A DNA stretch of 64,000 bases, taken from IMG/VR virus record IMGVR_UViG_3300031660_000001; one strand, 5' to 3'. Within the stretch, counting starts at the first letter, position 1; every line of letters starts with the position of its first letter. Made by a program: the position numbers and the translations under genes. The stretch comes from an uncultured virus (IMG/VR IMGVR_UViG_3300031660_000001) (lineage: Duplodnaviria; Heunggongvirae; Uroviricota; Caudoviricetes; Crassvirales). Shown in pieces: positions 10,213-59,120 of the stretch. The notes under the pieces were generated by a model. It made no database searches. It was given only the letters and a program-made list of their open reading frames with translations, and had not been told where the DNA came from.

Positions 10213-11337
10213 ATGGAAATAAAAGTAAGAGACTTAGGGGTGGTTGAAGAAAAATCCCGTGCAGAAGTGGAAGAACAATTGCTTAAAAAGCATGAAGAAA
10301 AGTTTGAAGATTCCGCACAACCCACAGAAACTGTAGATAAAGTAGAGTTAAATTCTTCTACTGAACCAGAGGCTGTTGAAAAAGAAAACACTCCAGTGCC
10401 AGAGTTAAATGACACAGACGTTCTTTCTTATATTAGAGATAGATATAATAAGGATATAAATTCGGTAGACGAATTACTTGCGGAAAAAGAGGCAAATGAG
10501 GAGCTACCAGAAGATGTATCTGCATATTTTAAGTACAAAAAAGAAACCGGCCGAGGTATCTCAGATTTTTATAATCTACAAAAAGATATTGAAAGCATGG
10601 GTGACGATGATGTACTAGCTAATTACTATAGCGCAACTGAAGAAGGTTTAGACGCTATAGATATTCAAGATATAATTGAAGACAAGTTCAGTGTCGATGA
10701 AGACGTGGATGAGCCTAAAGATATTAAGAAAATTAAATTAGCAAAAAAACGAGAACTTGCGAAAGCTAAAAAGTTTTTGAATGAACAAAAAGATAAATAT
10801 AAAGTTCCTCTTGAGTCAAGTGGGGATGGGTTATCTGCTGAACAACAAGAAAATTTAAGTGCTTATAAGAGTTACATTAATGAATCTCAAACAATTGAGG
10901 AGCAAACTAAAAAAAAGTATGATTACTTTAAAACAAAAACCGATCAGGTTTTTAACGATGAGTTCAAAGGTTTTGAATTTAAAGTTGGAGAAAGTGATAT
11001 TACTTTTAAGCCAGGGACTTCTGACGAGCTAAAAAATGTTCAATCTGATATTAATAATTTTATTGGTAAATATTTAAACAAAGATGGCTTAATAGAAGAC
11101 TCAAAAGGTTATCATCGTTCTTTAGCAGTAGCTATGAACCCTGATAAATTTGCTCAATTTTTTTACGATCAAGGTGTCTCAAATACCGTAGACAATGTTT
11201 CTAGAAAATCTAAAAACATAAATATGAATGTGAGACAGTCTCCGCAGACCATCACTAAAGATGGAATGAAAATAAGGGCAGTAGGAAATACCGATAGTGG
11301 AAGAGGACTTAGAATTAGAAGTATTAAACGAAGTTAA
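10213..11337 (+). CDS. Putative capsid scaffolding protein
   Basis: Acidic helical protein between portal and capsid; TAACTTTA box at 10189-10196. Confidence 0.7.
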   Translation: MEIKVRDLGVVEEKSRAEVEEQLLKKHEEKFEDSAQPTETVDKVELNSSTEPEAVEKENTPVPELNDTDVLSYIRDRYNKDINSVDELLAEKEANEELPEDVSAYFKYKKETGRGISDFYNLQKDIESMGDDDVLANYYSATEEGLDAIDIQDIIEDKFSVDEDVDEPKDIKKIKLAKKRELAKAKKFLNEQKDKYKVPLESSGDGLSAEQQENLSAYKSYINESQTIEEQTKKKYDYFKTKTDQVFNDEFKGFEFKVGESDITFKPGTSDELKNVQSDINNFIGKYLNKDGLIEDSKGYHRSLAVAMNPDKFAQFFYDQGVSNTVDNVSRKSKNINMNVRQSPQTITKDGMKIRAVGNTDSGRGLRIRSIKRS

Positions 11338-27683: not shown

Positions 27684-30600
27684 ATGAAGAAATATAAGTC
27701 TCCAGACGGAACTATTTTTACAGAAGCTGAAGCTATAAAAACTTATGGAGATAGGTTTCAGAGTTTTGTTGATGATGGCCAATTAAAATTAGTTGAAGGT
27801 GAAGAAGAAGTTATAGAAGAAGTACAAGAAGAAGTTGATGTTGTAACATATGAGTCTCCAGACGGAACTATTTTTACAGAGGCTGAAGCCATAGAAACTT
27901 ATGGAGATAGGTTTCAGAGTTTTGTTGATGATGGCCAATTAAAAAAAAAAGGCTCGTCCGACTTATCTGGCACTGGGCAAGAGGAAAATACGGAGTCTAC
28001 TACAGAAATCGTACAAGAAGATGGTTCTTTGGCTTCTGGTCAAAACCCAGCTAGGGAGTTAAGTTCAATCGAACAAATGTATCAAGAATCTGGAGAAGAA
28101 GCAGTTTATGAAACTGTAAACATTCCAGGGGGTGGTAGTTACAGAAAAAAAGTAGGAGTAGTTTATAATCAACCTTTGATAGATGAATTAATGGTTGAGC
28201 CTGGTATAAAGGCAGCTTTAGATGCAGGTAAAATCACTGCTCTTGATATTAAAACCGCTGCTAGTAATGATCCATCTAGTGCGAAATTCCGCGCGAAAGT
28301 TGATGAGTTTAGGGTAAAATCTTCTGAAGAAATTTCTGAAATATTAACTAATGAAAATTTAAATAAACCTTACATATATGAAGAGGCGGCAGTGGACGAT
28401 GATTTTATAGATAGTGTTTTTTCTAATGCACAACTTCAAGGACTGCAAAATTTTAATATAGAAGATTTTAATGGATTTGTTACTGAAAAGGGATACAAAG
28501 CTGATTATTTAAAAAGATTAGAGGATGGTAACTACGACTCTAACTCTTCTTTTCAATCTAAAAAAAACAAGAACTTAATGCTTCAAGTCTTGAAAGAGAA
28601 AGACGAATTAAGAATGATTACTTTGTATTTAGAAGAACTTCAGGAAAGAGATTTAAGATTTCAAGAATTACAATGGAGAAAAGATAACAAGGGGGTAAGT
28701 GCTTCTGATGTAAAATTTATTCCTGCGCAAATTATAAACCCCAATCAATTAAGTGAGTTTATTAAACAAAACATGCCCAACTTTGCGTCTTCAATTAACC
28801 AGCAAAGAGAAAAAGTTGAAGAGCAGTATAATAAAATGAAAAACAACAAACAAAATGGTTTGTGGGAATTTGCAAAAAGTTATGGGAATAGTTTTGATGA
28901 TAGATTAAACCAAGTTACAGCTTCTGTATTTGATTTTTTTGGAGATTCAGCCGCTACAGGAGTAAGAATGGCTGAAGAATATGAGGCTATGATGAAAGAT
29001 CCTAGTTTACAATACGGATATGTAAGTGGTAATGAAGTAGAAATAGGAGGAGTTAATTATTTAGTTAATGCAGATGGAAATGTTTTTGACACAGATGCAA
29101 AAGCTCAAGTAACTTCTGCGTTAGACCAAGAAAGTATAAAATTAATAAGAGAAGAAGCTAAAAAAAATGGAAAGGCTGGTACAAGTTTTAGCACGCAAGG
29201 TATTGCAATTGATACCGCTGGAGTTCTTGGATCTATTACTGTTGATTTATTTTTAACAAAAGGAGCTTCATCCGCAATGACGGTAGGAGGGGGAGCTTTA
29301 ACGCTTGGAGCAAGTTATACGGGAGGAGCAAAAATTGTGGCAAAAAGTTTAGATAAACTTAGAAGTGTGCCTGTTTCTAGAGGAATGTCATCATCTATAA
29401 TAGCACAAACAACCTTGGGACTTTCTCAAGGTGTAGAGTCAACTTTAAGAGAGGCTAAGGCAGCAGGATTAAATGATGAAGACGCTAAAGAATTAGCTAC
29501 AATAGCAGGATTAGAAATGGCAACTCTTTATGGATTAACAGGATTTATTTCTCCTCAAACCAAGGCTACAGAATTATTATTTGGAGGAATTAATAAAACT
29601 ACTTTAATAAAAGAAGCTCTAAAAAAATACACAAAAGAAGGAACAAAGGGTTTTGTGAATAGGTTTAAACAAGCGGGTAGAGATATAGCTAAAAATCCTA
29701 TTAACACAATTAAAAATGCTGGTAAAGAAATATTAGATTATGGTGGAGAAGGAGCAAAAGAGTTTATACAAGAGAATGTACAACAAGCAGGAGAAAGGTT
29801 TGTTGTTAATCCAAGTTTAAATAAAATTGCCGCAGAAAAAATAATGGCAGATACAATAAGTGGAGATGAATTTATAAATACCTCTATGTTATCTTTTGCG
29901 GCTGCATTCATAATGCCTGGTGCAGGTAAAGTGACATCTTCCATTACTTCTTTATTTCCAGGTAATGATATAGATAAGTTACAAATGTTAGGGCTTTTAA
30001 ATTCTAATAAAGACAAAACACTTCAGCTTTTAGATACTCAAGTAGATTCAGGTTTAATAACATCAAAACAAAGAAATGATGTTGCACGTCAAATGAAAAT
30101 ATATGCAGGAAGCATAAATTTGATTCCTAATAATTTTTCAGCTAGTACAGCCAATGCTGTTATGGATAATGTATACGAAATCTCAAGATTAGAAAATGAA
30201 AAAGAAGGTAAAGCTAAGGCGATTAAAGCAGATATAGATAAACAAATAGAGGCTTTAAATTTAGAGATTGATTCTGCTATAGCTTTTTCTAATTTTGATA
30301 AGGAAACTCAAAAAGACGAATTAAAGAAAGCTAAAAATGAATTACAAAAAAAAGATCCTAAAAAAATATTAACCGATAACGAAATTTTAAAATATGCCAT
30401 TCAAAAGCAAAGCACAGAGAACGTGGATGCAAAAAAATCTACCGAAGGTGGCAAAAAGGTGGATGAAAATGTACTCGACAACGAATCTACCGGAAAGGGT
30501 GACCCCGAAGGTGAAAATAAAAACAAAGAGAAATCCAAAACGAAAGTAGATAAACAAACAATAATACCTCCTAAAACTGACAAAGAAATAAAAGAAGGGT

Positions 30601-33600
30601 TAAACAAAGAAGGATACACTCCTAAAAAAGGAATGGTGACTTTTCGTGTGCCTATTATATCTCGTTTTTTTAAAAATCTAAAAATAGATGTAGCGGCAGA
30701 CAACCCTATAGCTAAAGTAACTAATCGTATTAATAGAACCTTAAAACAAGCGTTTACATCTTTAGGGAATAAACCTATTTCATCTGGCACAAGTAGTGAA
30801 AAATCTAGAAACGAACAAGCTTCTATATTATTTAAGGCAGGTAAAGCTGCTCAAACTTTTAATAGATTATTTAAAGTTACTAAAAATGAATCTGATTTAA
30901 CTCCGGAACAGTTACAAAAAATGAGTGATGATATTTCTGCGGCTCTTGAAGGTAAAGCTAAAAATTCTAAAGGAAAAGAAATAACTTTAGAACAATTTGT
31001 TAAAAATTATAGATTTAAAAACAATAAAAACAAAAAAAACAGAGGCTTAAGTCAGGGTTTTCAAAATATAATATTAAAATTAAGGTCTGATATAGATCAA
31101 ATGTCTCAAAGTATTCTTAATGAAGACGGTGCTCCTACTAGTGTAAAAGAAATTATAAAAACCAATATAGGAGCTTATTTAAATAAATCTTATAGGTTTT
31201 ATGAAGGTAATAAAAAAGGGGATGAATATATAGAAACACTAAGTGCTGAAGTTTTAAATGAGGCTAGAGCTTTTTTATCAAAAGATGAAATTATAATTGA
31301 TAACGCTAAAAAGTCTAGCAAAAAAGCAGGATTGAAATTTACAGATGAGTTGACACGTTTAGTAGATTTAGAAATAAATGAAATGTTAAGTGAAAAAACA
31401 ACAATTAATAGTTTTGGAACTATAGTTACTATGACGGGGAATAAACAGGGTGTTTTTAAGCAAAGAAAATTAGACAGTCCACAACTAAAGGCTTTATTAG
31501 GAGAGATAACTGATCCGATTGCTAAGTATATCACTACTATGTCTAAAACAGCAGCTATTCTTTCACAGGCAAAACACTATAACAATGTATTTAATTCTGG
31601 GAATGGTGTTTATTTATTTGAAAAAAACGATCCTAATAGGCCTAAAGGTAAAATGGATAAAATTGAAGGGACTAATTCTCCTTTAGACGGATTGTATGCA
31701 TATCCTGATGTTATAGAGTCAATAACAGGTTCTGGAGTAACAGACGTTAAACAAATGGTAAAAGGAATATATAATCCAAAAGAGAGTAATTGGGTTAAAA
31801 GAAGCTTAGATAGTTTAGTTGATGGAATTTTTGCTGTAGCCGTTTCTTTTCCTAGGGAAGCTAAAACAGTTTTATCTTTTTCTACTCAAATTATAAACTT
31901 TGGCTCGAATGTAAACTTTGCGGTTATTAATGGTCATTTACCTGTTTCTTTGGTAAATAAAAAAATGAGTATTAAATCATATACTACAGCAGCTAAAACA
32001 GTTATGGGTTCTCTTTTAAATAAAACAGATGAAGAATTGGAGGAAAAACTTGCTGAGTATTACGCAAAAGGTATTATAGGCCAAAGTGTGGACGTAAGAG
32101 AATTGAGAGATATAATGAGGGAAGGAGATGATGAAACGGATTTATTAAAAAGATTTAGTCAAGATCCTGTTTATAAAACTAGTAAATTTTGGGACACTGT
32201 TTTGTTTAAAAAGTTTAGAAAAGGAGCTGCTAAAGTGTATCAAGTAGGAGATGATTTTTGGAAAATAATGGGTTATGAGCAACAGATGGCTGTCAATGCA
32301 CCATTATATTATGATAAAAATCTTAAAGATTTAAACGCAAATGAATTAAAATTTGTGTCTGATAGAGCGGCAGAAATGGTTAAAAATCAATATCCTAATT
32401 ATGACAGGATTCCAAAGGCTGCTAGGTTTTTTAAATACCTTCCATTTGCAGGAAATTTTATTTCATTCCAAGCAGAGTCATACAGAACAGCTTACAATAC
32501 TGTATCAGGATCTTACAATATGTTAAATGATGGGAACCGATTAATTAAGGATGGGGAAAAAGACAAAACCACAGATGAGGGAAAAGAAAAGATTGCAAAA
32601 GGGAAAAGGTTTAGAAAAGAAGCTTTAAGGAAAATAGGAAACATAGCGGCTTATACAATGATGAGGGACGTTGTTTTATATCAAGTTGCTACAAGATTAG
32701 GAGGTAAAGTTTTAGGGGGCATAAGCTCTATGATAAAAGATGATGAAGAAGATGAAGAGAAAGATACTGTAGGGGGATTAAGTGAAAACGAAAAAGCAAT
32801 AAGAAACTTCTTGCCTGAATGGCAAAAAAACTCAAATGTAATTATAACACAAGCAAGTGATGGAACAATAAAATTAATAGATGCTTCTACTTTTGATCCT
32901 CATCAATTGCTTCAAGCTAACTTAAATGTTTTATTGCAATCAAAAAATTATTCAGATGCTATAAAGGGAATAATACAAGAAAACACTAAAACATTTGCTA
33001 GTAAAGATTTTGTATTTGACGCTATAAACAAAGCCGCTGATGCTTACAAAAGAACAGGGTATGATATGCCTTATAAAGTAGGAGGAGATACTAATTGGTA
33101 TGAGTTTCATAAAAAATTCCTTCAACCCGTTGTAGCAAGGGCGCTACTACCAGGAACAGTATTGCAGATTGAAGATGGGCTTGGCGATACCCCTATATCA
33201 GGGAGAAAACCAAAAGATCCAGATTGGAAAAAATTAGTTGGGATTAGAAGTACGACTGTTGATGTCTCTAGACAATTTTATTTTAATATACAGCCTAAAC
33301 AGGCAAAACAAAATCAAAAAGAAGCAACATTAAGAAAAGCATGGGGTGCTTTGGAAAGACAAATTAATAATAATGAAATAACTTTTGAGGAAGCTTCTAA
33401 AAGATTAAAAAAACTTACTACTACCGATGTTTCTAGTCTTAATGAAAGAAAAATGAAAATGCAAAAATACATAACAAAACAAATACAGTATGCTATTTTG
33501 TTAGGAGCTAAAGGAGAAGATCTTATTAATACATTAAAAGGGTACAATATAGGATTAAAAAAAGGTGATATAGAGGCAATAGGTAAAGGTGGAATGATTC

Positions 33601-33659
33601 CAATTCCTCAAATTCCTAAGAAATATTTTTCTAAATCTGAAGATAAAGGTGTGTTATGA
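27684..33659 (+). CDS. Giant putative ejection/internal virion protein (1991 aa)
   Basis: Position; Gly/Ala-rich membrane-like segment, EGAKEFIQE, GDDFWK…YPNY…PFAGNFISF.AE. Confidence 0.65.
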   Translation: MKKYKSPDGTIFTEAEAIKTYGDRFQSFVDDGQLKLVEGEEEVIEEVQEEVDVVTYESPDGTIFTEAEAIETYGDRFQSFVDDGQLKKKGSSDLSGTGQEENTESTTEIVQEDGSLASGQNPARELSSIEQMYQESGEEAVYETVNIPGGGSYRKKVGVVYNQPLIDELMVEPGIKAALDAGKITALDIKTAASNDPSSAKFRAKVDEFRVKSSEEISEILTNENLNKPYIYEEAAVDDDFIDSVFSNAQLQGLQNFNIEDFNGFVTEKGYKADYLKRLEDGNYDSNSSFQSKKNKNLMLQVLKEKDELRMITLYLEELQERDLRFQELQWRKDNKGVSASDVKFIPAQIINPNQLSEFIKQNMPNFASSINQQREKVEEQYNKMKNNKQNGLWEFAKSYGNSFDDRLNQVTASVFDFFGDSAATGVRMAEEYEAMMKDPSLQYGYVSGNEVEIGGVNYLVNADGNVFDTDAKAQVTSALDQESIKLIREEAKKNGKAGTSFSTQGIAIDTAGVLGSITVDLFLTKGASSAMTVGGGALTLGASYTGGAKIVAKSLDKLRSVPVSRGMSSSIIAQTTLGLSQGVESTLREAKAAGLNDEDAKELATIAGLEMATLYGLTGFISPQTKATELLFGGINKTTLIKEALKKYTKEGTKGFVNRFKQAGRDIAKNPINTIKNAGKEILDYGGEGAKEFIQENVQQAGERFVVNPSLNKIAAEKIMADTISGDEFINTSMLSFAAAFIMPGAGKVTSSITSLFPGNDIDKLQMLGLLNSNKDKTLQLLDTQVDSGLITSKQRNDVARQMKIYAGSINLIPNNFSASTANAVMDNVYEISRLENEKEGKAKAIKADIDKQIEALNLEIDSAIAFSNFDKETQKDELKKAKNELQKKDPKKILTDNEILKYAIQKQSTENVDAKKSTEGGKKVDENVLDNESTGKGDPEGENKNKEKSKTKVDKQTIIPPKTDKEIKEGLNKEGYTPKKGMVTFRVPIISRFFKNLKIDVAADNPIAKVTNRINRTLKQAFTSLGNKPISSGTSSEKSRNEQASILFKAGKAAQTFNRLFKVTKNESDLTPEQLQKMSDDISAALEGKAKNSKGKEITLEQFVKNYRFKNNKNKKNRGLSQGFQNIILKLRSDIDQMSQSILNEDGAPTSVKEIIKTNIGAYLNKSYRFYEGNKKGDEYIETLSAEVLNEARAFLSKDEIIIDNAKKSSKKAGLKFTDELTRLVDLEINEMLSEKTTINSFGTIVTMTGNKQGVFKQRKLDSPQLKALLGEITDPIAKYITTMSKTAAILSQAKHYNNVFNSGNGVYLFEKNDPNRPKGKMDKIEGTNSPLDGLYAYPDVIESITGSGVTDVKQMVKGIYNPKESNWVKRSLDSLVDGIFAVAVSFPREAKTVLSFSTQIINFGSNVNFAVINGHLPVSLVNKKMSIKSYTTAAKTVMGSLLNKTDEELEEKLAEYYAKGIIGQSVDVRELRDIMREGDDETDLLKRFSQDPVYKTSKFWDTVLFKKFRKGAAKVYQVGDDFWKIMGYEQQMAVNAPLYYDKNLKDLNANELKFVSDRAAEMVKNQYPNYDRIPKAARFFKYLPFAGNFISFQAESYRTAYNTVSGSYNMLNDGNRLIKDGEKDKTTDEGKEKIAKGKRFRKEALRKIGNIAAYTMMRDVVLYQVATRLGGKVLGGISSMIKDDEEDEEKDTVGGLSENEKAIRNFLPEWQKNSNVIITQASDGTIKLIDASTFDPHQLLQANLNVLLQSKNYSDAIKGIIQENTKTFASKDFVFDAINKAADAYKRTGYDMPYKVGGDTNWYEFHKKFLQPVVARALLPGTVLQIEDGLGDTPISGRKPKDPDWKKLVGIRSTTVDVSRQFYFNIQPKQAKQNQKEATLRKAWGALERQINNNEITFEEASKRLKKLTTTDVSSLNERKMKMQKYITKQIQYAILLGAKGEDLINTLKGYNIGLKKGDIEAIGKGGMIPIPQIPKKYFSKSEDKGVL
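27697..27944 (+). repeat. 92-bp direct repeat (27697-27788 and 27853-27944), 3 mismatches
   Basis: SPDGTIFTEAEAI.TYGDRFQSFVDDGQLK encoded twice. Confidence 0.95.
27941..27950 (+). other. A10 candidate slippage/frameshift site
   Basis: A10 inside the CDS; both alternative frames stay open for 34-36 codons downstream. Confidence 0.5.
30394..30549 (+). CDS. Nested +1-frame basic microprotein MPFKSKAQRTWMQKNLPKVAKRWMKMYSTTNLPERVTPKVKIKTKRNPKRK (51 aa)
   Basis: ATG in AT-rich context to TAG; local GC rise; resembles the MPFKS..QR.W small phage proteins (from recall). Confidence 0.7.
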   Translation: MPFKSKAQRTWMQKNLPKVAKRWMKMYSTTNLPERVTPKVKIKTKRNPKRK

Positions 33660-48592: not shown

Positions 48593-48807
48593 TACTATTT
48601 TTTTATATAAAACTATTATTTTAGTATTAAATTATGTTTAAACAACCTGCAACAGGTAGAAAAAACTTTTATAATGCTTTATACATAACGTTTAAACAGG
48701 CTTATGTTCTGTACTTTAGGCGGTTACATTTGTAAACTTTGGGGGTGTTTTGTTTTCATTTGTAAATTGTCGCGGGGGTATTACTCTTTAATGACGCATG
48801 TGTGAAC

Positions 48808-48837
48808 AGAGAGAGGGAGGAAGGGAAGGGAAGAAGG
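48808..48837 (+). repeat. 30-bp homopurine tract
   Basis: agagagagggaggaagggaagggaagaagg. Confidence 0.9.
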
Positions 48838-48848
48838 TATAGGATAAA

Positions 48849-48897
48849 GCGCGTGTGCGTACGTGCGTGTGCGCGTGTGCGTGTGCGTGTGCGCGTG
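48849..48897. repeat. 49-bp perfect purine-pyrimidine alternation (GC/GT)
   Basis: gcgcgtgtgcgtacgtgcgtgtgcgcgtgtgcgtgtgcgtgtgcgcgtg. Confidence 0.95.
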
Positions 48898-49062
48898 GGT
48901 AATAGGACTACCCTTGATAGTAAAAGCCAAACAATCTGAAAGAAAAATTTATGTTCCTCTGTTGACCTCTGAATATTTTCGGTTTCCTTTTTAGCGTCTC
49001 GTCTCGTATGAAGACATATAACCCTAAACCTCTATATATGTAATGCAAAAAAAAATTTTTAC

Positions 49063-49070
49063 TATATTTG
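49063..49070 (+). promoter_or_regulatory. -7 promoter box TATATTTG
   Basis: Upstream of the ATG at 49087. Confidence 0.65.
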
Positions 49071-49086
49071 TATTAAACTTTATACT

Positions 49087-49284
49087 ATGAATAGTAATGA
49101 TTACGTTAAAGGCCTATACGTTAAGAACGGTAGGTTAATCAATGATCGTAAAGACGGAGAGTCAGGTATCGCTAGAGCGGCTTCAATTAAGAGAGCTGTA
49201 GATAATGACAGAAAAATTAACCAGATAGCTGAAGGAATTCAGTTAGCAGAAAACAAGAAAAACTTTAATCAATTAGAGTATTAA
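49087..49284 (+). CDS. 65-aa hypothetical protein (GLYVKNGRLIN)
   Basis: Bounded by a promoter box and a terminator. Confidence 0.75.
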   Translation: MNSNDYVKGLYVKNGRLINDRKDGESGIARAASIKRAVDNDRKINQIAEGIQLAENKKNFNQLEY

Positions 49285-49314
49285 AAAAAATTGTTCTGTT
49301 TCGATTAGTTGATT

Positions 49315-49350
49315 GAAGAGGGATTTCTAACGAGATCCTTCTTTTTTTTT
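49315..49350 (+). terminator. Intrinsic terminator
   Basis: agagggatttc/gagatccttct stem followed by T9. Confidence 0.75.
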
Positions 49351-49646
49351 GTGTCGATTTTGGATTTAACATAATGTTGAAAATCCGAAGTACTATGCAT
49401 GCATAGTAAATAAATTTTTAGGCAACCCTAAAAAACAGCCTAAAATGTCGATAATCGACACTAAGGTGTCAATAATTTTTTAAAATCGACACTAATTAAT
49501 TGTTTGATTATCAATACTTTAACTACTATATTTATTACTTGTGTCGATAATGTCGAAAAAAAACCTATTATACTATAGTAAAAAAAAGTAAAAAGTAAAA
49601 AACACTATAGTCTGTATATGAACAAGAAAATCGACATTTCCGACAC
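49351..49646. repeat. Cluster of TGTCGA/TCGACA repeats; candidate replication origin
   Basis: Exact copies at 49352, 49446, 49455, 49486, 49542, 49551, 49631, plus variants, in AT-rich non-coding DNA. Confidence 0.6.
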
Positions 49647-49669
49647 CATTATAAAATCAATTTATTTAC

Positions 49670-49677
49670 TATCTTTG
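49670..49677 (+). promoter_or_regulatory. -7 promoter box TATCTTTG for groEL
   Basis: TAnnTTTG upstream of the ATG at 49700. Confidence 0.65.
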
Positions 49678-49699
49678 TTTTAAATCAAATTTAATTTTA

Positions 49700-51298
49700 A
49701 TGAAACAATCATACATTCCAAAAGACTTAACGTTTGACAATGAAGGTCGCTCAAAATTGATCAAAGGAATTTCTAAAATATCTAAAGCAGTTAAGAGTAC
49801 CTTAGGCCCTAGAGGCCGCACTGTTCTAATCGAATCTCCAGAACATCTTGCAGGTATCACAGTGACTAAGGATGGTGTGACTGTAGCTAATTCAATCTTC
49901 TTGGATGATCCAATAGAAAACTTAGCTATACAGATGATGAAAGATGCTGCTAGTAGAACTGCCCAGCAAGCTGGTGATGGTACCACTACGGCAATCGTTT
50001 TGACCGAGGCTATTGTAAATGCGGGTGAGACTCACTTAACTCCGGAGCATAATGTAACTGAGGTTATTAAATACATAAATAAATTTAAAGATAATTTGAT
50101 TGAAAAGCTTGAGAAGGGATCTAAAAAGATTACTAAGTCTAGGTTATTAGATGTTGCTACCATATCGGCTAACAACGATAAAGAGATTGGATCAATTATA
50201 GCGGATGCTTACAAAAAAGTTGGGAATGATGGGATAGTTACCGTGGAGAAGAGTATGAATCATGAGACGTATGCTGAGGTTACTAACGGGATTAAAGTAG
50301 ATCGTGGATATACATCCAACTTATTTCTAAACAACCAGCGTAAGGATGAATGCATTATGGAGGATGTAATGGTTCTAGTGTGTGACCAGGAGATTAATAA
50401 CATCTTGCAAATTGAGAATGTACTTAAGCCTATTATACAGCAAAACAAAAAACTTTTAATGATTGCGCCTTGTTCGGCTAATGTAATTAATACACTTGCC
50501 GCTAACGTGGTAAGAAACGGACTGCAATTATGTAATATTGTTCCTCCAAACTTTGGATACAAGCAGCATGAGCTGATGCAAGACATAGCATTTGCGGTTG
50601 GAGCGAAATACTATTCAGAAAAAACAGGAGATGACTTAAGTTTACTAAGTCTAACCGACCTAGGCCATGTAGATAAAATTATAGTTGGTAAATCCACTAG
50701 TGTTTTAATCAAAGATGCACCTATAACACAAGAAACTACGGATCGTATAGCTGAGCTTAGAGAGCAGCAAGAAGCTACAACCTTCCAATCTGACCGAGAT
50801 TTCATTAACGAACGTATAGCAAGCCTTGCAGGAGCCATAGGCTGTATCTATGTTGGTGGAAATAGTGATATTGAACAAAAAGAAAAATTTGACCGAGTCG
50901 ATGACTCGGTATGCGCTGTGCGCAGTGCTATGCAAGAAGGAATTATAACTGGAGGAGGGTTAGCTTTGTTCAATACAGTAGATAATTTAAGTTCTAGTGC
51001 AACTAACTCTAACCAGGCAGTGGCATTTAAAATACTAAAAGAAGCGGTGAAGGTGCCTTTGAAACAAATTATTATTAATTCAGGTAAAAATCCTAATGAT
51101 ATTATTGTTTTATTTTTACCAGAGAATCCTGACCACGGTTATGATGTAAAAAACGAAAAGATGGGAGACATGTTTAAGATGGGAGTAATAGATCCCCTTA
51201 AGGTTACTAAGAATGCATTAATTAATGCAGTGTCTGTAGCAACGACAATACTGTCCACTAACGCAATAGTAACACACGCTAGAGCACAAATAACTTAA
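49700..51298 (+). CDS. groEL: Phage chaperonin GroEL
   Basis: TLGPRGR, TKDGVTVA, AGDGTTTA, ISAN, GGG.AL, GVIDP.KV; no GGM tail. Confidence 0.95.
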   Translation: MKQSYIPKDLTFDNEGRSKLIKGISKISKAVKSTLGPRGRTVLIESPEHLAGITVTKDGVTVANSIFLDDPIENLAIQMMKDAASRTAQQAGDGTTTAIVLTEAIVNAGETHLTPEHNVTEVIKYINKFKDNLIEKLEKGSKKITKSRLLDVATISANNDKEIGSIIADAYKKVGNDGIVTVEKSMNHETYAEVTNGIKVDRGYTSNLFLNNQRKDECIMEDVMVLVCDQEINNILQIENVLKPIIQQNKKLLMIAPCSANVINTLAANVVRNGLQLCNIVPPNFGYKQHELMQDIAFAVGAKYYSEKTGDDLSLLSLTDLGHVDKIIVGKSTSVLIKDAPITQETTDRIAELREQQEATTFQSDRDFINERIASLAGAIGCIYVGGNSDIEQKEKFDRVDDSVCAVRSAMQEGIITGGGLALFNTVDNLSSSATNSNQAVAFKILKEAVKVPLKQIIINSGKNPNDIIVLFLPENPDHGYDVKNEKMGDMFKMGVIDPLKVTKNALINAVSVATTILSTNAIVTHARAQIT

Positions 51299-51300
51299 TT

Positions 51301-51540
51301 ATGGCACACGAACCACATGCATTTGAAAATCAAATCTTTCAACACTTTAGAGATAATGCTAAGAAGATTAATAACTGTATTGAATTTTTAACAGAACACA
51401 ACTACACTGTTATAGATTTGGAAGGAGAAATTATCACAAAAGATAATTTAAAGAAACAAGATAAATTTGATTTAGACTTTAAAGAATCAAGCAACTACAG
51501 GATACCTAAACTAAAAAAAAATAATGAAACCAATAGGTAA
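51301..51540 (+). CDS. Hypothetical protein between groEL and groES
   Basis: ORF track. Confidence 0.65.
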   Translation: MAHEPHAFENQIFQHFRDNAKKINNCIEFLTEHNYTVIDLEGEIITKDNLKKQDKFDLDFKESSNYRIPKLKKNNETNR

Positions 51541-51781
51541 ATATATTATCATCAACAAGATTGAAGAAGAGCATAAAACTGAATCAGGCTTGTTGTTATC
51601 AGCAGCTGATGTGCAAGAGTTTCGTTATATCAAAGGGGAGGTTGTAAAATCAGGAAGTGATGTAAGTGTAATTCACGAAAAAGATATTATCTACTATGAT
51701 AGTGGGGCAGGTCACAGTATGTTTATTGGAGATAAGCCGTATACCATCATCACTGAGAGAGATGTCGTTGTTGTTTTATAA
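51524..51781 (+). CDS. groES: Co-chaperonin GroES
   Basis: MKPIGKYIII…KTESGLLL…GEVV..G…I.ERDV. Confidence 0.85.
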   Translation: MKPIGKYIIINKIEEEHKTESGLLLSAADVQEFRYIKGEVVKSGSDVSVIHEKDIIYYDSGAGHSMFIGDKPYTIITERDVVVVL

Positions 51782-52229
51782 ACTCATTCATTTCAATCAT
51801 AGTGTTTCTGTAAACTTTATCCATGTAAGAGGCATCGTTACGGAATAAAGGATTTGAATGTGCTGTCTCCGCAACCTCTTCACCATTAAGTTTTTTATAA
51901 ATCATCGTTATAATGCGTTTAGCTTTATAAGTTAACTCGTATAGAGTTGCTTCATTACCCTGGCGTTTTCTCCACACATGTATCCAATCATCCCTAAGCA
52001 TTCTAGAGAATCTTTTAATATCCCAACTCATAACTTCTTCGTAAGTACTAAACTGTGTCTTGTTAAAAATATCCTCGCTGTATAAGAACAATAACATTTC
52101 TAAATCTGGAGTAGTAAGGCCATACTTAGCCTTTACCCAGTAACGGATAACTCTCCAATATTTTAAATAATTATGTGATGGTATTCGCCTAGTCGTAGGC
52201 TTTCGTTTTTGAACTCCTTTAATTTTCAT
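51750..52229 (-). CDS. Putative winged-helix transcription regulator
   Basis: YGLTTPDLEMLLFL…LYELTYKA, MarR-like pattern. Confidence 0.55.
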   Translation of the reverse strand: MKIKGVQKRKPTTRRIPSHNYLKYWRVIRYWVKAKYGLTTPDLEMLLFLYSEDIFNKTQFSTYEEVMSWDIKRFSRMLRDDWIHVWRKRQGNEATLYELTYKAKRIITMIYKKLNGEEVAETAHSNPLFRNDASYMDKVYRNTMIEMNEFIKQQRHLSQ

Positions 52230-52242
52230 TAAATTTAATTTG

Positions 52243-52258
52243 TATATTTGTAAAGATA
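52243..52258. promoter_or_regulatory. Abutting face-to-face -7 boxes (+ TATATTTG 52243-52250; - TATCTTTA 52251-52258)
   Basis: Sequence tgtatatttgtaaagataat between divergent genes. Confidence 0.55.
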
Positions 52259-52284
52259 ATAATTACTAATTTAAAAATATAATT

Positions 52285-52389
52285 ATGCCAACAGTAGGAA
52301 AAAAGAAATTTGCATATACTCCAAAAGGAAAGGCATCAGCTAAAAAAGCCGCTAAAAAAACAGGCAAAAAAGTTAAATCTAAATATTAA
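52285..52389 (+). CDS. 34-aa Lys-rich microprotein MPTVGKKKFAYTPKGKASAKKAAKKTGKKVKSKY
   Basis: Read manually; first ATG after the promoter box. Confidence 0.75.
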   Translation: MPTVGKKKFAYTPKGKASAKKAAKKTGKKVKSKY

Positions 52390-52390
52390 C

Positions 52391-52630
52391 ATGCCAGATA
52401 AAAAAAGAACTAAAACGCAAAAAAAAGCTGATAGACAAAAAACAGTTACTTACATTAAGACCTCTAAGTATGGGCCAAATAAAGTAAGAAAAATTTCTAA
52501 AAATGCTGCTCGTAGAAAAGTAAATAGAAAAATGAGTCAAGATATTAGTCCGGTAGATAAGCCTTTGACTATTTTAATTAAAGATAATGCTAAGAACAAG
52601 CGTCCTCCTAGTATTAAATCAATGTTATAA
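52391..52630 (+). CDS. Basic hypothetical protein MPDKKRTK… (ATG at 52391, not 52310)
   Basis: Starts right after the stop at 52389. Confidence 0.65.
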   Translation: MPDKKRTKTQKKADRQKTVTYIKTSKYGPNKVRKISKNAARRKVNRKMSQDISPVDKPLTILIKDNAKNKRPPSIKSML

Positions 52631-52663
52631 TTGATGGCAAAGTAAAAAAAGCTAAAAAATAAA

Positions 52664-52915
52664 ATGCCACCTAGAAAAGGAAAAGCTAAAGTTAAAGTCA
52701 CCTCTTCAGGCAAGCGTGTAAGCTACGGTCAAGCTGGCAGTGCAAAAGGAGGAGGCCCAAGAGTAAGACCTGGTACTTCTAAAGGTGATAGCTACTGCGC
52801 TAGAAGCCTGGGAATAAAAAGAAGACTATCCAAGAAAAAACAAAACGATCCTAACACCCCAAACAATCTATCTCGTAAGCGTTGGAAATGTGTTGGAGCT
52901 AAGTCTAAAAGATAA
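52664..52915 (+). CDS. Basic protein (VSYGQAG…SYCARS…RWKC)
   Basis: ORF track. Confidence 0.75.
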   Translation: MPPRKGKAKVKVTSSGKRVSYGQAGSAKGGGPRVRPGTSKGDSYCARSLGIKRRLSKKKQNDPNTPNNLSRKRWKCVGAKSKR

Positions 52916-52957
52916 TAATAAATAATTCTTATATTTGTAATATATAAAACTATTATT

Positions 52958-53155
52958 ATGCACAAACAAGGATATAATTCAAGACTAGACGAATCATTAG
53001 GAGCTAGAAACGGAAAGAAAAAACAATCTATGAAATCTCGTAGAGATGAATCAAAAGGAATGTCCAAAAAAATGTACGGTCACGCTTATGGCGCTGACAA
53101 GTCTATGTCATACAGACACACTGCTAAAGTAGTTAAGCACGATCATTTAAGTTAA
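52958..53155 (+). CDS. Basic protein (QGYNSRLDESLG)
   Basis: ORF track; TATATTTG at 52930-52937. Confidence 0.75.
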   Translation: MHKQGYNSRLDESLGARNGKKKQSMKSRRDESKGMSKKMYGHAYGADKSMSYRHTAKVVKHDHLS

Positions 53156-53158
53156 ATT

Positions 53159-53314
53159 ATGGCTAAAGATTTTATACAGAACGTATTTCAAGGAGCTAAA
53201 AAAAGAGGAACTTTAGGGGATTGCACTGGTGATAAATTTGGAAGTCAAAGTTGTCCTAAGGGCAGTAAGAAATATAATTTTGCCAAAACAATGCGCAAAA
53301 TAAATAAAAAGTAA
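53159..53314 (+). CDS. 51-aa basic protein MAKDFIQNVFQGAKKRGTLGDCTG…SCP…KINKK
   Basis: Read manually; fills the gap. Confidence 0.7.
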   Translation: MAKDFIQNVFQGAKKRGTLGDCTGDKFGSQSCPKGSKKYNFAKTMRKINKK

Positions 53315-53324
53315 ATAAAATCAA

Positions 53325-53525
53325 ATGGCAAAGAGTAAAAAATTTATTGGATTAGATAAAGAACAAGATAATTCTTTAGAAGTCTATAAAAAAAACATGG
53401 CTCTTAGGGCTATAGAATTAAAGCAAAGAATAGTAAATGTTGCAGAGCTTAATAAAATGTTAGAAGAGAAAGCTGATAAAGACGCAAAACTTAAAAAGAA
53501 AAATGGCAAAGCAAAAAAAAAGTAA
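53325..53525 (+). CDS. Basic hypothetical protein
   Basis: ORF track. Confidence 0.6.
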   Translation: MAKSKKFIGLDKEQDNSLEVYKKNMALRAIELKQRIVNVAELNKMLEEKADKDAKLKKKNGKAKKK

Positions 53526-53751
53526 AGACACTTTAAGTGCAAAAAAAATTAGCGAAAGTAAACTTGCGAGTGGCTTAGTGAACTTAAAGAAAAAGATGGA
53601 TAGTATTGCTAGGGGGAAATCAACGAATAATATTAATTTTAGCACAAAAGATATAAATGCTATAGTTAATAATAGATATAATTCTTCTATGGCTAAATCT
53701 TTTAAAAAACAAAAAAGAAAATTAGATTCAATGGCTAAATTGAAAAAATAA
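53503..53751 (+). CDS. Basic hypothetical protein
   Basis: ORF track. Confidence 0.6.
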   Translation: MAKQKKSKDTLSAKKISESKLASGLVNLKKKMDSIARGKSTNNINFSTKDINAIVNNRYNSSMAKSFKKQKRKLDSMAKLKK

Positions 53752-53753
53752 TT

Positions 53754-53978
53754 ATGGGGAAAACTTGTAGAATATCTGTTTTAGGAAAAAGTTTTAAAGG
53801 TAAGGTTTCTAAAGAACAAAGAAAACAAATTAATAACTGTAAGTTGGAAAAATTTAAAAACAAAGGTAAAAGTCTTTTAAATAAAACTAGAGATTTTGTA
53901 AAAAAACCAGTGATTACAACTAAAAGTGGAGACACTATAAGTCTTAGAAATCCAATAATTAGAAAACAAAATAAATAA
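53754..53978 (+). CDS. Basic hypothetical protein
   Basis: ORF track. Confidence 0.6.
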   Translation: MGKTCRISVLGKSFKGKVSKEQRKQINNCKLEKFKNKGKSLLNKTRDFVKKPVITTKSGDTISLRNPIIRKQNK

Positions 53979-53986
53979 AAAGATAA

Positions 53987-54070
53987 GTGAATAAAATTAA
54001 ACCATGTCAGTGCGGAACAACTCAAGATCCAAATGGAAATTGTGACGGCTCACATCTATTAAATATATGA
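53987..54070 (+). CDS. 27-aa CDGSH-type Fe-S microprotein (GTG start) MNKIKPCQCGTTQDPNGNCDGSHLLNI
   Basis: CxC…CDGSH motif; ATGA overlap with the next gene. Confidence 0.65.
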   Translation: MNKIKPCQCGTTQDPNGNCDGSHLLNI

Positions 54071-54213
54071 AATCAAAAGGACTCGGGGATAGTATTGAAA
54101 AATTTACTACAGCAACAGGAATAAAAAAAGTAGTTGACACTGTGACTCAAGGTGGGTGTGGGTGCAACGATCGTAAGGATAGTTTAAACAGAATGTTTCC
54201 TTACAAAAAATAA
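54067..54213 (+). CDS. 48-aa protein MKSKGLGDSIEK…GCGCNDRKDSLNRMFPYKK
   Basis: Read manually; GLGD…CGC..R…LN pattern. Confidence 0.75.
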   Translation: MKSKGLGDSIEKFTTATGIKKVVDTVTQGGCGCNDRKDSLNRMFPYKK

Positions 54214-54242
54214 GAGAATTTTTAACCCTCTAAAACAAAAAA

Positions 54243-55010
54243 ATGGCATATCCAAAAATTACAGTTAACACAGCTTTAGCTTTAGAAATATTAGCTAGTG
54301 ATACATTAACAATACCAGCACCAGACTTACCTGTATTGTCAGGTACTTCCACAGGAATTACAAGCGGAACAGCAAACGCTAATGTTGTTAGTGAATTAGT
54401 AGATACTACAACAGACTTTTTAGCCGCAACACCTCCACTACCAGTTGTAGTAGGAGATACAGTTATTTCAATAGTGTCTGGAGCAGCAACTGCTGCAATA
54501 GCACCTATTACAGCAACAGGAATAGCTTTAGGAGCAGATATATTTCCTGAGGGAAATGAAACTTATGCTATTGTTAAAGCAAGTCATTTAATTGTATCTG
54601 GAGAAACATTTGTAACCAAAGGTGTAAGTATTGGAGATATAGTGTATAACACAACTGCTAACACTAGTAGTTCTGTGGTATCAGTAAATAATAATACTGA
54701 TATAACATTAGCAGATGACTTATTTGGTGGAAGTGCAACTTTTAATGACAACTACGAAATATATTTAGGAGGCCCTAATGGATCTTCCAGGATAAATTCT
54801 GCTGAAGGATGTTTACTTTATGTAGGAAGCTCTTTAAGTCCAATGACATTGGCTGGTAGTTATACAACGGTAAAAGTAAAAACAGTTGCGGGAAATGATG
54901 TAACTTTTAATAATTTTCCAGTAGGAAATTATTTACCTATACAAATTCTTCAATTATTTTCAACAGGGACTGACGCTGTGTCAAGAAATAATTGTGTAGC
55001 AATATGGTAG
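54243..55010 (+). CDS. Putative virion structural protein with nested beta domains
   Basis: T/S/V-rich; C-terminal LYVG…V.T..G.DVTF…G..LP.Q. Confidence 0.65.
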   Translation: MAYPKITVNTALALEILASDTLTIPAPDLPVLSGTSTGITSGTANANVVSELVDTTTDFLAATPPLPVVVGDTVISIVSGAATAAIAPITATGIALGADIFPEGNETYAIVKASHLIVSGETFVTKGVSIGDIVYNTTANTSSSVVSVNNNTDITLADDLFGGSATFNDNYEIYLGGPNGSSRINSAEGCLLYVGSSLSPMTLAGSYTTVKVKTVAGNDVTFNNFPVGNYLPIQILQLFSTGTDAVSRNNCVAIW

Positions 55011-55055
55011 ATTACATACAAACAAACTCGGCCTTTTTAGAAATAAAAATAACAT

Positions 55056-55220
55056 ATGAAATTGTTAATAATGACAGACTGGAAACTATACGCTCTTAAT
55101 AGCGCTGCACTTGGACTATCTTTAACGGAAATAGAAACGAGTCTAAAGATAATATTACTTCTTTTGACAATAGGTTATACTGTTCACAAATGGTTAAAGA
55201 TAAAAAAAAATGATAAGTGA
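55056..55220 (+). CDS. Putative small holin with two in-frame starts (55056 and 55071)
   Basis: MKLLI-MTDWKLYALNSAALGLSLTEIETSLKIILLLLTIGYTVHKWLKIKKNDK; overlaps the endolysin start. Confidence 0.6.
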   Translation: MKLLIMTDWKLYALNSAALGLSLTEIETSLKIILLLLTIGYTVHKWLKIKKNDK

Positions 55221-55674
55221 ACATATTTCAGAAAAAGAGGCTACTAAGTCAATAACAGCTATGAGATTAAGTCTTGACAATACTCCAGACGGAGTTGTGT
55301 TAAGTAACATGAAAACTATAGCTGAAAAAGTATTCGAACCATTACGCAAATGGACAAAAGGCCCAATAAGAATAAATAGCTTTTATAGATCAGAAGCTCT
55401 CAATAAAGCTATTGGGGGGAGCTCTACCAGCCAGCATTGCGAAGGAAAAGCTTTAGATTTAGACGATATTTATGGTCATAAAACTAACGCAGAAATGTTT
55501 AACTTTATAAAAGAAAAATTATCGTTTGATCAAATGATTTGGGAGTTTGGAACTTCAGAGAATCCTGATTGGGTTCATGTAAGTTATATTGATGAAGATG
55601 AAAACAGAAATAGGATTTTAAAGGCGGTAAGAGATAAAGGAAAAACAAAATATATAGATATAACAAATGGCTAA
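55210..55674 (+). CDS. Endolysin, peptidase M15 family
   Basis: INSFYRS..LN.AIGGS..SQHC.G.A.D…WVHVSY. Confidence 0.9.
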   Translation: MISEHISEKEATKSITAMRLSLDNTPDGVVLSNMKTIAEKVFEPLRKWTKGPIRINSFYRSEALNKAIGGSSTSQHCEGKALDLDDIYGHKTNAEMFNFIKEKLSFDQMIWEFGTSENPDWVHVSYIDEDENRNRILKAVRDKGKTKYIDITNG

Positions 55675-55972
55675 TAGGAAGATAGAAGACAAGTCTGTGG
55701 GAATTGATTTAGATGGTGATGGAGTTAAAGACTTTACGCTCGATTTTAAAACAATTATTGTTTGTTTAGGTGGATTAATTTCTTTGGTTTTAACTTATTC
55801 AAAACTAACAGAACAAATAGATCTTAACAAGCAAGAAATCGAAGTGGCTAAAAAATTACCACCAACACAATCACATGATCTTATGGATCAAAAAATATTA
55901 TTTTTAGAAGAGCATATAAAAGAACAGAATGTTCGCTTAGATAAAATAGAAGATAAAATTTATAGAAGATGA
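55667..55972 (+). CDS. Single-TM coiled-coil protein (spanin candidate)
   Basis: TM IIVCLGGLISLVLTY then coiled coil; DLDGDG motif. Confidence 0.5.
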   Translation: MANRKIEDKSVGIDLDGDGVKDFTLDFKTIIVCLGGLISLVLTYSKLTEQIDLNKQEIEVAKKLPPTQSHDLMDQKILFLEEHIKEQNVRLDKIEDKIYRR

Positions 55973-56352
55973 AAAAACTAATATCCCCTTTTTTATTATT
56001 AATAGTAATATTACTATTTGCATTAAGCTGCGGTACTTATACTCCAGCTAAAGTTGCATCACATATAGTTGCTGTTACTTTACAGGGAGATACTATATTA
56101 GTTCCTATAGATAGAATAAGACCTAACATGTATCATAGTTATTATCCGGTTTATAGTAGTTATAATTACTACAGGCCATATTATGGTCAAAACAACTATC
56201 AATTTAGATATTCTGACAACAGAGGCTTTAAATCAAGTGGAGGAGGCAAGAAAAGTAATGGTGAAGTAAAGATAAATCCTAAACCTATAAACACAACTCC
56301 TGATATTGTTGGCAGACCAAGTTCAGCTGTCCTGATGAAACCTAAGAAGTAA
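55969..56352 (+). CDS. Lipoprotein (spanin candidate)
   Basis: Signal peptide with lipobox FALSC. Confidence 0.6.
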   Translation: MKKLISPFLLLIVILLFALSCGTYTPAKVASHIVAVTLQGDTILVPIDRIRPNMYHSYYPVYSSYNYYRPYYGQNNYQFRYSDNRGFKSSGGGKKSNGEVKINPKPINTTPDIVGRPSSAVLMKPKK

Positions 56353-56747
56353 TGAAAACAATACTAGCAAAGTTATTTGGTAAGGCTGGTGGAGGATTAG
56401 CTAGTAAACTATCATCTATTGTAGATAAATTTGTACACACCAAAGATGAGCAGGCGGCTTTCAAAAAAGAAATGGATGAATTGTGGATAGATGCTGAAGC
56501 AGACATGCAAAAGAATATTACTGAAAGATGGCTGTCAGACGGAAAATCAGATTCATGGCTCAGTAAAAATGTACGTCCAATGGTTCTTATATTTTTATGT
56601 ATAAGCACTGTGCTAATGGTGTTTATAGATGCTGGAGCAATTAGCTTTGATTTAAAAGACTCACACACTGATTTATTACAAATGATCTTGTTAACTTGTA
56701 TTGGAGCGTATTTCGGAGGTCGATCATACGAGAAGATTAAAAAATAG
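56352..56747 (+). CDS. 3TM-type holin
   Basis: RW.SD..SDSWLSKNVRP…AYFGGRS.EK. Confidence 0.75.
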   Translation: MKTILAKLFGKAGGGLASKLSSIVDKFVHTKDEQAAFKKEMDELWIDAEADMQKNITERWLSDGKSDSWLSKNVRPMVLIFLCISTVLMVFIDAGAISFDLKDSHTDLLQMILLTCIGAYFGGRSYEKIKK

Positions 56748-56762
56748 GTAATTCTTTTTTAT

Positions 56763-56770
56763 TATCTTTG
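56763..56770 (+). promoter_or_regulatory. -7 promoter box TATCTTTG
   Basis: Intergenic TAnnTTTG. Confidence 0.65.
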
Positions 56771-56787
56771 TTCTATAAATTTCTACA

Positions 56788-57558: not shown

Positions 57559-57572
57559 GAAAATAAAAAATT

Positions 57573-59102: not shown

Positions 59103-59120
59103 TAAATTTAATTTAATTAC

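Follow-up and report, generated by a model that had tools for sequence, protein, structure and literature searches.

The stretch of DNA considered here, 64,000 nucleotides from an uncultured virus of the Crassvirales (IMG/VR record IMGVR_UViG_3300031660_000001) and referred to throughout as the window, contains a giant open reading frame (ORF) within which a second, far smaller ORF lies on the same strand in the +1 frame. Comparison with related sequences indicates that the smaller ORF is probably a real, selected protein-coding gene whose nucleotides double as a linker of the giant virion gene. The features concerned are the following.

27684..33659, + strand: giant host gene, an ORF of 1991 amino acids, the last in the virion structural module
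30394..30549, + strand: putative nested small gene, 51 codons plus a TAG stop, for a basic protein of the MPFKSKAQ family (phrog_1375-like)
30393..30548, + strand: host-frame reading of the nested span, residues 904-955 of the giant protein, acidic/polar, linker-like and free of stops

As read from the window sequence, the nested ORF begins with the ATG at 30394, ends with the TAG at 30547-30549 and yields a product of 51 amino acids, MPFKSKAQRTWMQKNLPKVAKRWMKMYSTTNLPERVTPKVKIKTKRNPKRK, with 12 lysines, 5 arginines and a single glutamate; its frame is +1 relative to the 1991-residue ORF. The ORF had been described in a first-pass annotation, made by a model from the letters alone, and its start, stop, product and frame were all exactly reproduced. 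The same annotation had pointed to a rise in guanine plus cytosine (GC) content over the ORF and to a host frame that turns linker-like there, and both descriptions hold. On recounting, GC content is 0.41-0.43 in 30400-30549 (0.412 for the nested ORF by itself), against 0.23 in 30300-30399, just upstream, and 0.28-0.32 in the flanks, and the host reading over the span is YAIQKQSTENVDAKKSTEGG (residues 904-955).

The length of the nested ORF alone is within chance. Specifically, among 2000 synonymous shuffles of the giant gene a +1 ATG ORF of at least 51 codons was present in 789 and the nested span stayed open in the +1 frame in 227, and +1 ATG ORFs of 50, 49 and 46 codons exist in other genes of the window. 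Therefore, the case rests on comparison with other sequences, and what goes beyond chance, as far as such comparison can indicate, is the homology of the peptide together with the conservation of both frames. Elsewhere in the window, the longest alternative-frame ORF is a 78-codon ATG ORF in the +2 frame, at offset 296 of the tail-fibre-like gene 118-3192.

Two minus-strand ORFs, 30387..30557 (56 amino acids) and 30401..30790 (129 amino acids), also overlap the nested gene. The plus strand is very A-rich in this region (adenine-thymine skew 0.5-0.65), which leaves few stops on the minus strand; both ORFs, which are closed in the closest relative (L003), were taken as by-products of this composition and were rejected as genes.

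A family of small basic phage proteins

Among called proteins, a word-indexed search with the window peptide (P0001) returned P0004, a protein of 51 amino acids with 78% identity (E 7e-18, scored against a database of 5.8 billion sequences), and P0005, of 50 amino acids with 57% identity (E 1.3e-6). A first tblastn search of the peptide against isolate phage genomes gave E values of 0.5-5 only and, though weak, led to free-standing copies. A scan of viral contigs found at least 277 relatives among the 600 candidate stretches listed, the best 80 of which all begin at query residue 1. In the set of loci compared below (80 viral contigs, two isolate phages and the window, counted as loci and not as independent lineages), the product starts with MPFKS and the ATG is invariant in 83 of 83, the usual length being 34-64 amino acids, with two longer fusions.

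When the 71 distinct members were aligned, M1, P2, F3, K4, S5, A7, Q8 and P17 proved invariant and K6, A20 and W23 nearly so, and the window peptide has every one of these residues. Its identity to the 70 other members is mostly 41-78%, the lowest value being 35%. A profile of the 71 members, searched against 1.84 billion representatives, matched 4066 clusters at E ≤ 1e-3 and 669 at E ≤ 1e-10. In these proteins, which range from 46 to 980 amino acids, the family domain almost always occupies the extreme N terminus, and profile positions 1-40 map onto residues 1-40 in most of the best 150. The PHROGs v4 family phrog_1375 (category unknown function) was matched by 47 of the 71 members, with a best E value of 2.2e-7. 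The proposal of the first-pass annotation, a recurring family of small phage proteins that includes this peptide, is thus borne out by the contig scan, the profile clusters and the matches to phrog_1375.

Named families and known structures add little to this picture. A Pfam scan of the 71 members gave no convincing match, and NCBIfam gave nothing for them. DUF3008 (PF11450) came closest among named clusters in a comparison of language-model features (score 0.84, no more than a lead), and none of the 71 members matched it at E ≤ 5. A sequence search of the small-protein family against the PDB found no match. An AlphaFold2 model of the small protein (mean predicted local distance difference test score 82) consists of a helical hairpin, with helices at residues 6-15 and 17-26, followed by an NLPERV segment and an extended tail rich in lysine and arginine; fold searches with this model were uninformative, since every match in BFVD was to a small uncharacterised phage protein and the PDB had none below E 5.

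The family module can also head longer proteins. In two GC-rich viral contigs it is found in frame at the front of proteins of 248 and 361 amino acids (L016:4001-4747 and L027:4001-5086), and the profile search yielded many further MPFKS-headed fusions of up to 980 amino acids, whose C-terminal parts are mostly of low complexity. These longer proteins are unrelated, some being rich in alanine, glycine or glutamine and one ParB-like. Searches of 30 of them against Pfam gave nothing informative (one DUF5661, a weak ParB-like match and weak AAA matches), and their C-terminal parts are unrelated to the giant proteins, save for two marginal matches.

Free-standing and nested copies

A copy was counted as nested when the host frame (-1 relative to the small ORF) runs on without a stop through the whole small ORF, over 140 codons or more. 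By this definition 51 of the 83 loci are free-standing and 32 are nested, the latter being distributed as follows.

16 of 32 nested loci: giant ORFs of 1191 to more than 2600 codons, the window included
12 of 32 nested loci: ORFs of 381-423 codons directly after the portal gene, the portal being phrog_6547 like that of the window
4 of 32 nested loci: doubtful GC-rich cases (L029, L030, L049 and L074)

The four doubtful cases were set aside as nested loci, since high GC content lets a host frame stay open by chance (in 456-763 of 3000 recodings of the kind described below) and since, in L029, homology to the large terminase starts only downstream of the small ORF. The small ORF is +1 to its host in every nested case, and over its start the host reads [DNY]A[VIL]Q[KEV][QE][SG]. 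The first-pass annotation had taken the motif AIQ.QS for an out-of-frame shadow of the family, and [DNY]A[VIL]Q[KE]QS was indeed found as such in host genes. Both free-standing relatives and nested copies with conserved ATG and stop, which the same annotation had named as the support to look for, were found.

The giant hosts are linked to each other by remote, patchy similarity only. The post-portal hosts are orthologues of the window gene 10213..11337 (38-41% identity over residues 83-372). No MPFKS ORF is present in that window gene or in any of 80 close relatives of it (80 of 80 lack one), and the small gene thus sits in different host genes in related phages. The window gene itself (10213-11337) matches phrog_16786 and encodes 374 amino acids with an acidic N-terminal region; its orthologue hosts a nested copy in another clade (L006, L011 and L076), and at offset 667 it contains a 50-codon +1 ATG ORF.

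The neighbour of a free-standing copy may be a gene for the large terminase, for the portal or for ribonucleotide reductase; other copies come straight after genes for proteins of 980-1300 amino acids. In L005, L012, L014, L026 and L052 such an upstream gene (980-1300 amino acids, some being phrog_32588) stops 2-9 nucleotides before the ATG of the small gene. These upstream genes share homology with the C-terminal part of giants. Gene order therefore differs between the two arrangements, the nested copy lying upstream of the C-terminal part in the giants and the free copy downstream of its homologue.

When whole records were scanned for the family, a single member, nested in each case, turned up in two CheckV-complete relatives of 62.3 and 65.2 kb, in two partial relatives and in the Flavobacterium phage vB_FspP_elemoF_6-3D. 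In the record of this phage (NC_055853.1), a 42-amino-acid copy lies at 52379..52507, in the +1 frame inside a coding sequence for a 'structural protein' of 3694 amino acids (48718..59802, with a DUF3293 match), and the record carries no annotated feature for it. A like match was given by 68 Flavobacterium phage records, of which this one was inspected.

Conservation in relatives found through the host protein

A search of viral contigs with the giant protein, independent of the small ORF, gave eight loci. Five of them, with 37-43% identity in the giant protein (L083-L087), all keep an intact 51-codon copy with the stop in the same place, and their nested peptides are 67-78% identical to that of the window. 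The other three are remote giants of 22-26% identity and 3243-4208 codons without a nested copy, no MPFKS ORF being present in any of them (L088, L089 and L090). Thus neither a lack of homologues nor the loss of the +1 frame in related giant genes, which the first-pass annotation had named as evidence that would speak against it, was observed.

In the six sequences formed by the window and the five closer relatives, the small frame has a mean pairwise identity of 0.76 and the host frame, over the same nucleotides, one of 0.48, the giant protein overall having 0.39 per alignment column. The variable columns at positions 1, 2 and 3 of the small-frame codons number 23, 18 and 40 of 51. As position 3 of the small frame is position 1 of the host frame, such a pattern is consistent with purifying selection on the +1 frame, whereas the host frame alone would be expected to give the reverse. 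The nested ORF is also without insertions or deletions, in a gene whose stretch just upstream is rich in them (gap fraction 0.67). The post-portal group, a comparison set ascertained through the peptide, follows the same trend more weakly, with identities of 0.73 vs 0.56 and variable columns of 14, 12 and 18 of 27.

A host frame held open

Over the nested span the host frame reads YAIQKQSTENVDAKKSTEGGKKVDENV..., and this openness is not what the small peptide would leave behind by itself. More specifically, when the peptide was recoded with the codon usage of the window, the host frame contained 6.3 stops on average and was free of them in no more than 2 of 20000 recodings, and the predicted GC content was 0.324 +/- 0.018, compared with the 0.412 of the nested ORF. 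When the same recoding was applied to 19 giant hosts, the window included, at most 13 of 3000 were open for 17 of them, the exceptions being L041 (86 of 3000) and the GC-rich L081 (538 of 3000).

The third codon of the small gene illustrates how the two readings are reconciled. In the window TTT is used 463 times and TTC 64 times, and F3 is encoded by the rare TTC in 32 of 32 nested loci, compared with 32 TTT and 19 TTC among the free loci; TTT before AAR would create a TAA in the host frame. AT-rich nested loci show a GC bump (0.42-0.48 vs 0.32-0.34) that AT-rich free-standing copies do not. A host frame kept free of stops explains this bump, which can be regarded as the footprint of dual coding. 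Judged from these comparisons, both frames are open and each is maintained beyond chance.

Start and expression signals

In the GC-richer nested loci the internal start is accompanied by a recognisable signal. A Shine-Dalgarno (SD)-like 4-mer lies at -15..-7 of the nested ATG in 11 of the 13 nested loci with a host GC content of at least 0.42 (9 of 10 without three doubtful hosts). In the same genes such a motif precedes 13.7% of all +1-phase positions and none of the 34 other +1-phase ATGs. In the window two stretches upstream of the nested start deserve mention.

30354..30393, + strand: A/T-rich 40 nucleotides directly upstream of the nested ATG (GC content 0.20; the last 30 nucleotides at the 5th percentile of the host gene), a candidate region for SD-less initiation
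30290..30297, + strand: TAATTTTG, which fits the -7 consensus TAnnTTTG of Bacteroidota and lies 104 nucleotides upstream of the nested ATG

In Bacteroidota, translation as a rule does not rely on SD motifs. This habit, together with the Flavobacterium host of the carrier phage, is compatible with SD-less initiation, though no proof of it. Translation from an internal ATG without an SD motif would then be the mode in this AT-rich phage. TAnnTTTG was rejected as a conserved internal promoter, as it is found upstream in only 2 of 6 relatives.

The window stretch has been found in marine metagenomes of many studies. In two metatranscriptomic libraries from different studies, one short contig each spans the start of the ORF (30310-30477 and 30312-30499); such contigs, in which DNA carry-over is possible and which do not reveal transcript ends, cover parts of the stretch only, the uncovered parts being uninformative. 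Their shared start near 30310, just downstream of TAATTTTG, is at most a weak hint of a promoter. Four differences between these contigs and the window fall within the ORF, all at third positions of the small frame, where a reading of the codons indicates that each leaves the small protein unchanged but alters the host residue.

Alternative explanations

Several observations weigh against taking 30394..30549 for a selected gene, in addition to its unexceptional length: (i) the window peptide itself matches no PHROG or Pfam model at E ≤ 1, phrog_1375 included, so that it is placed in the family through its pairwise and profile similarity to those members for which a match exists; (ii) most nested loci beyond the five host-found relatives were picked by peptide similarity, which inflates the apparent conservation, and the counts are of loci, as stated; (iii) no SD-like motif lies upstream of the nested ATG in the window, and among the AT-rich nested loci, the window included, such a motif occurs in 1 of 19; and (iv) AT-richness upstream of the start is inconsistent as a general start signal of the AT-rich nested loci, with percentiles from 0.05 to 0.65, and was rejected in that role.

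The alternative that survives best, albeit as an improbable one, is that a free-standing small gene was swallowed by the fusion of two flanking genes and that the +1 ORF is now an untranslated fossil. Capture by fusion is plausible for a family that is mostly free-standing (51 of 83 loci), the window copy is without a recognisable SD motif, and, given the host protein, the span stays open in 227 of the 2000 shuffles mentioned above. A fossil should decay, yet all five hosts at 37-43% identity keep the ATG, the stop and the length along with 67-78% identity of the peptide, and variation is concentrated at the third positions of the +1 frame (40 of 51). Nor does a fossil account for the SD-like motif that precedes the nested start in 11 of the 13 loci of higher GC content, where the background is 13.7%, or for complete genomes that have no other copy.

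It is very improbable that the MPFKS segment is instead the product of a frameshift, whereby a +1 slip in the giant gene would make it the C-terminal extension of a fragment of about 900 amino acids and no separate protein would exist. The same-strand +1 overlap has the required geometry, programmed frameshifts do occur in phage structural genes, and the giant gene contains a run of ten adenines (A10) elsewhere, at 27941-27950. An extension of this kind has no use for an ATG that is invariant in 83 of 83 loci, or for a domain that comes first in the protein whether this is free-standing or fused. Furthermore, a +1 stop lies one codon upstream of the ATG in the window and 0-12 codons upstream in 11 of 15 other giant-host loci (28-43 codons upstream in L021, L065, L075 and L077), so that there is hardly any space in which a shift could take place; nothing shift-prone was noticed at the junction, although no search was aimed at it.

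Finally, a frame open by accident in an A-rich linker of low complexity, and only spuriously like small basic proteins, could claim the ordinary length of the ORF (789 of 2000 shuffles), the minus-strand ORFs open over the same span and the E values of 0.5-5 in the first tblastn search of isolate genomes, but is effectively refuted by the match of P0004 at E 7e-18 in a database of 5.8 billion sequences, the eight residues (M1, P2, F3, K4, S5, A7, Q8 and P17) invariant across 71 distinct members, the conservation of the nested ORF in relatives found through the host protein, and the minus-strand frames that are not conserved in the closest relative L003.

The giant host gene and its surroundings

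Apart from the giant gene, the window encodes a large terminase, a portal, several proteins matching virion structural PHROGs, tail-fibre-like proteins, GroEL and replication genes. The GroEL-like chaperonin lies at 49700-51298 (phrog_5725, E 2e-133). A GroES is encoded by 023Pt_psg01, one of the isolate phages with a free-standing MPFKS gene.

The giant protein (P0002) has no match in Pfam or among PDB sequences, and a blastn search of its gene against isolate phages found none. Its C-terminal third is 26% identical to the remote giant L088, which, as the one member of the remote trio compared with Pfam, has no nested copy and carries LPD5, LPD1 and ART-PolyVal domains, and giant hosts of nested copies carry matches to LPD23, ParB_N and DUF3293 and a weak match to ART-PolyVal. 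Polyvalent proteins with such domains have been proposed to be injected with the phage DNA (Iyer et al. 2017, PMC5512222). As the giant of the window is without a Pfam match of its own, its membership of this class is indirect.

At its start, the giant gene contains a tandem duplication of a segment of 32 amino acids (27693-27788 and 27849-27944, with 92 of 96 nucleotides identical), which reads ...SPDGTIFTEAEAI.TYGDRFQSFVDDGQLK... in the protein. The second duplicate ends in the A10 run at 27941-27950, after which the other two frames are open for 36 and 33 codons. There are two A10 runs in the window, and at least two occur in 95 of 100 shuffles, hence no enrichment. The suggestion in the first-pass annotation that the A10 site could bring the products of this locus to as many as four finds no support here.

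A small gene probably read through by a giant one

Taking 30394..30549 as a selected gene, a late structural messenger RNA would be read in two frames over the nested span. Ribosomes on the giant gene would stay in frame 0 across the span, where the product is an acidic and probably disordered linker, while other ribosomes would initiate at the internal ATG in frame +1 and produce a strongly basic protein of 51 amino acids, predicted to comprise an N-terminal helical hairpin, an LPERV segment and a lysine/arginine tail. The small protein might be a capsid-internal or co-injected nucleic-acid-binding protein, with the conserved N-terminal module used for incorporation or binding; this is a tentative guess from composition, gene neighbourhood and fusions only.

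Of the two partners, the small gene is probably the older, because its family is far wider than the nesting, is commonly free-standing and occurs in at least two unrelated host genes; the acidic linker of the giant would then be the younger, tolerated reading laid over it. The nesting may have arisen either by fusion of flanking genes or by insertion into linkers. The first-pass annotation had spoken of an overprinted gene missed by gene callers. The second part of this claim stands, given that the nested copy is unannotated in the record of a cultured phage, while birth of the small gene inside the giant one is unlikely for a family so wide and so often free-standing.

A more specific proposal, which we regard as unlikely, is that the MPFKSKAQ gene is a dual-coding cassette that fits the acidic linkers of genes for capsid-internal proteins, its -1 reading being a harmless acidic linker. 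Such a cassette would have found its way, each time in the same relative frame, into the giant polyvalent-type gene and the post-portal gene at least, two hosts that are unrelated to each other, and its strongly basic product would act on or with the charge-complementary host peptide, e.g. as a packaging or ejection partner. If so, the gene inside a gene would couple overlap, stoichiometry and interaction.

Among the embedded gene pairs of tailed phages, an arrangement of this type is that of lambda, where Rz1 lies wholly inside Rz in the +1 frame. As in Rz/Rz1, a small gene appears to lie wholly inside a longer gene of the same strand in +1, with both frames maintained, and embedded and separated (free-standing) forms alternate across phages. 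The present pair differs in that (i) a giant virion or polyvalent-type protein is combined with a basic helical microprotein, rather than two spanin subunits with each other; (ii) the embedded family is much wider than the embedding, and the nested copy is in a different host gene in some phages; and (iii) the likeness is one of gene arrangement and not of a functional link between the products.

Another parallel is offered by the internal proteins of T4, which are basic internal head proteins with N-terminal capsid-targeting segments. The MPFKSKAQ proteins are likewise small and basic, encoded in or beside genes for head and putative internal proteins, with a conserved N-terminal module that is also found at the front of longer proteins. 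However, this would be a functional analogy only, not one of sequence or structure, the virion location of the MPFKSKAQ protein being putative.

With phrog_1375 the family shares its size class and N-terminal motif; as that group was built from annotated proteins, nested unannotated copies are presumably unrepresented in it. DUF3008 also consists of small phage or bacterial proteins, but, as noted, is matched by no member at E ≤ 5. The giant hosts resemble the polyvalent proteins (PMC5512222) in their LPD23, ParB_N, weak ART-PolyVal and DUF3293 matches, from which the giant of the window differs by having none of its own. Overlapping or frameshifted ORFs do not come up in a term search of that paper, and the full-text literature (subscription journals not covered) contained no description of the case under the motif string or under nested or overlapping phage genes.

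Implications for phage gene catalogues

To our knowledge, nested genes in tailed phages are known from a handful of cases only, and gene callers suppress them. The MPFKSKAQ family would add a widespread case with comparative support. With thousands of clusters, it would be a family that in whole clades, including cultured Flavobacterium phages, is encoded only inside another gene, and is consequently missing from annotation and from protein catalogues. Local GC bumps and the use of rare codons inside AT-rich genes can flag such dual coding, and the available isolate of a carrier phage provides a concrete test system for the nested gene. The case also appears to be the opposite of classical overprinting, in that an old small gene would be read through by the younger linker of a giant, probably injected, protein.

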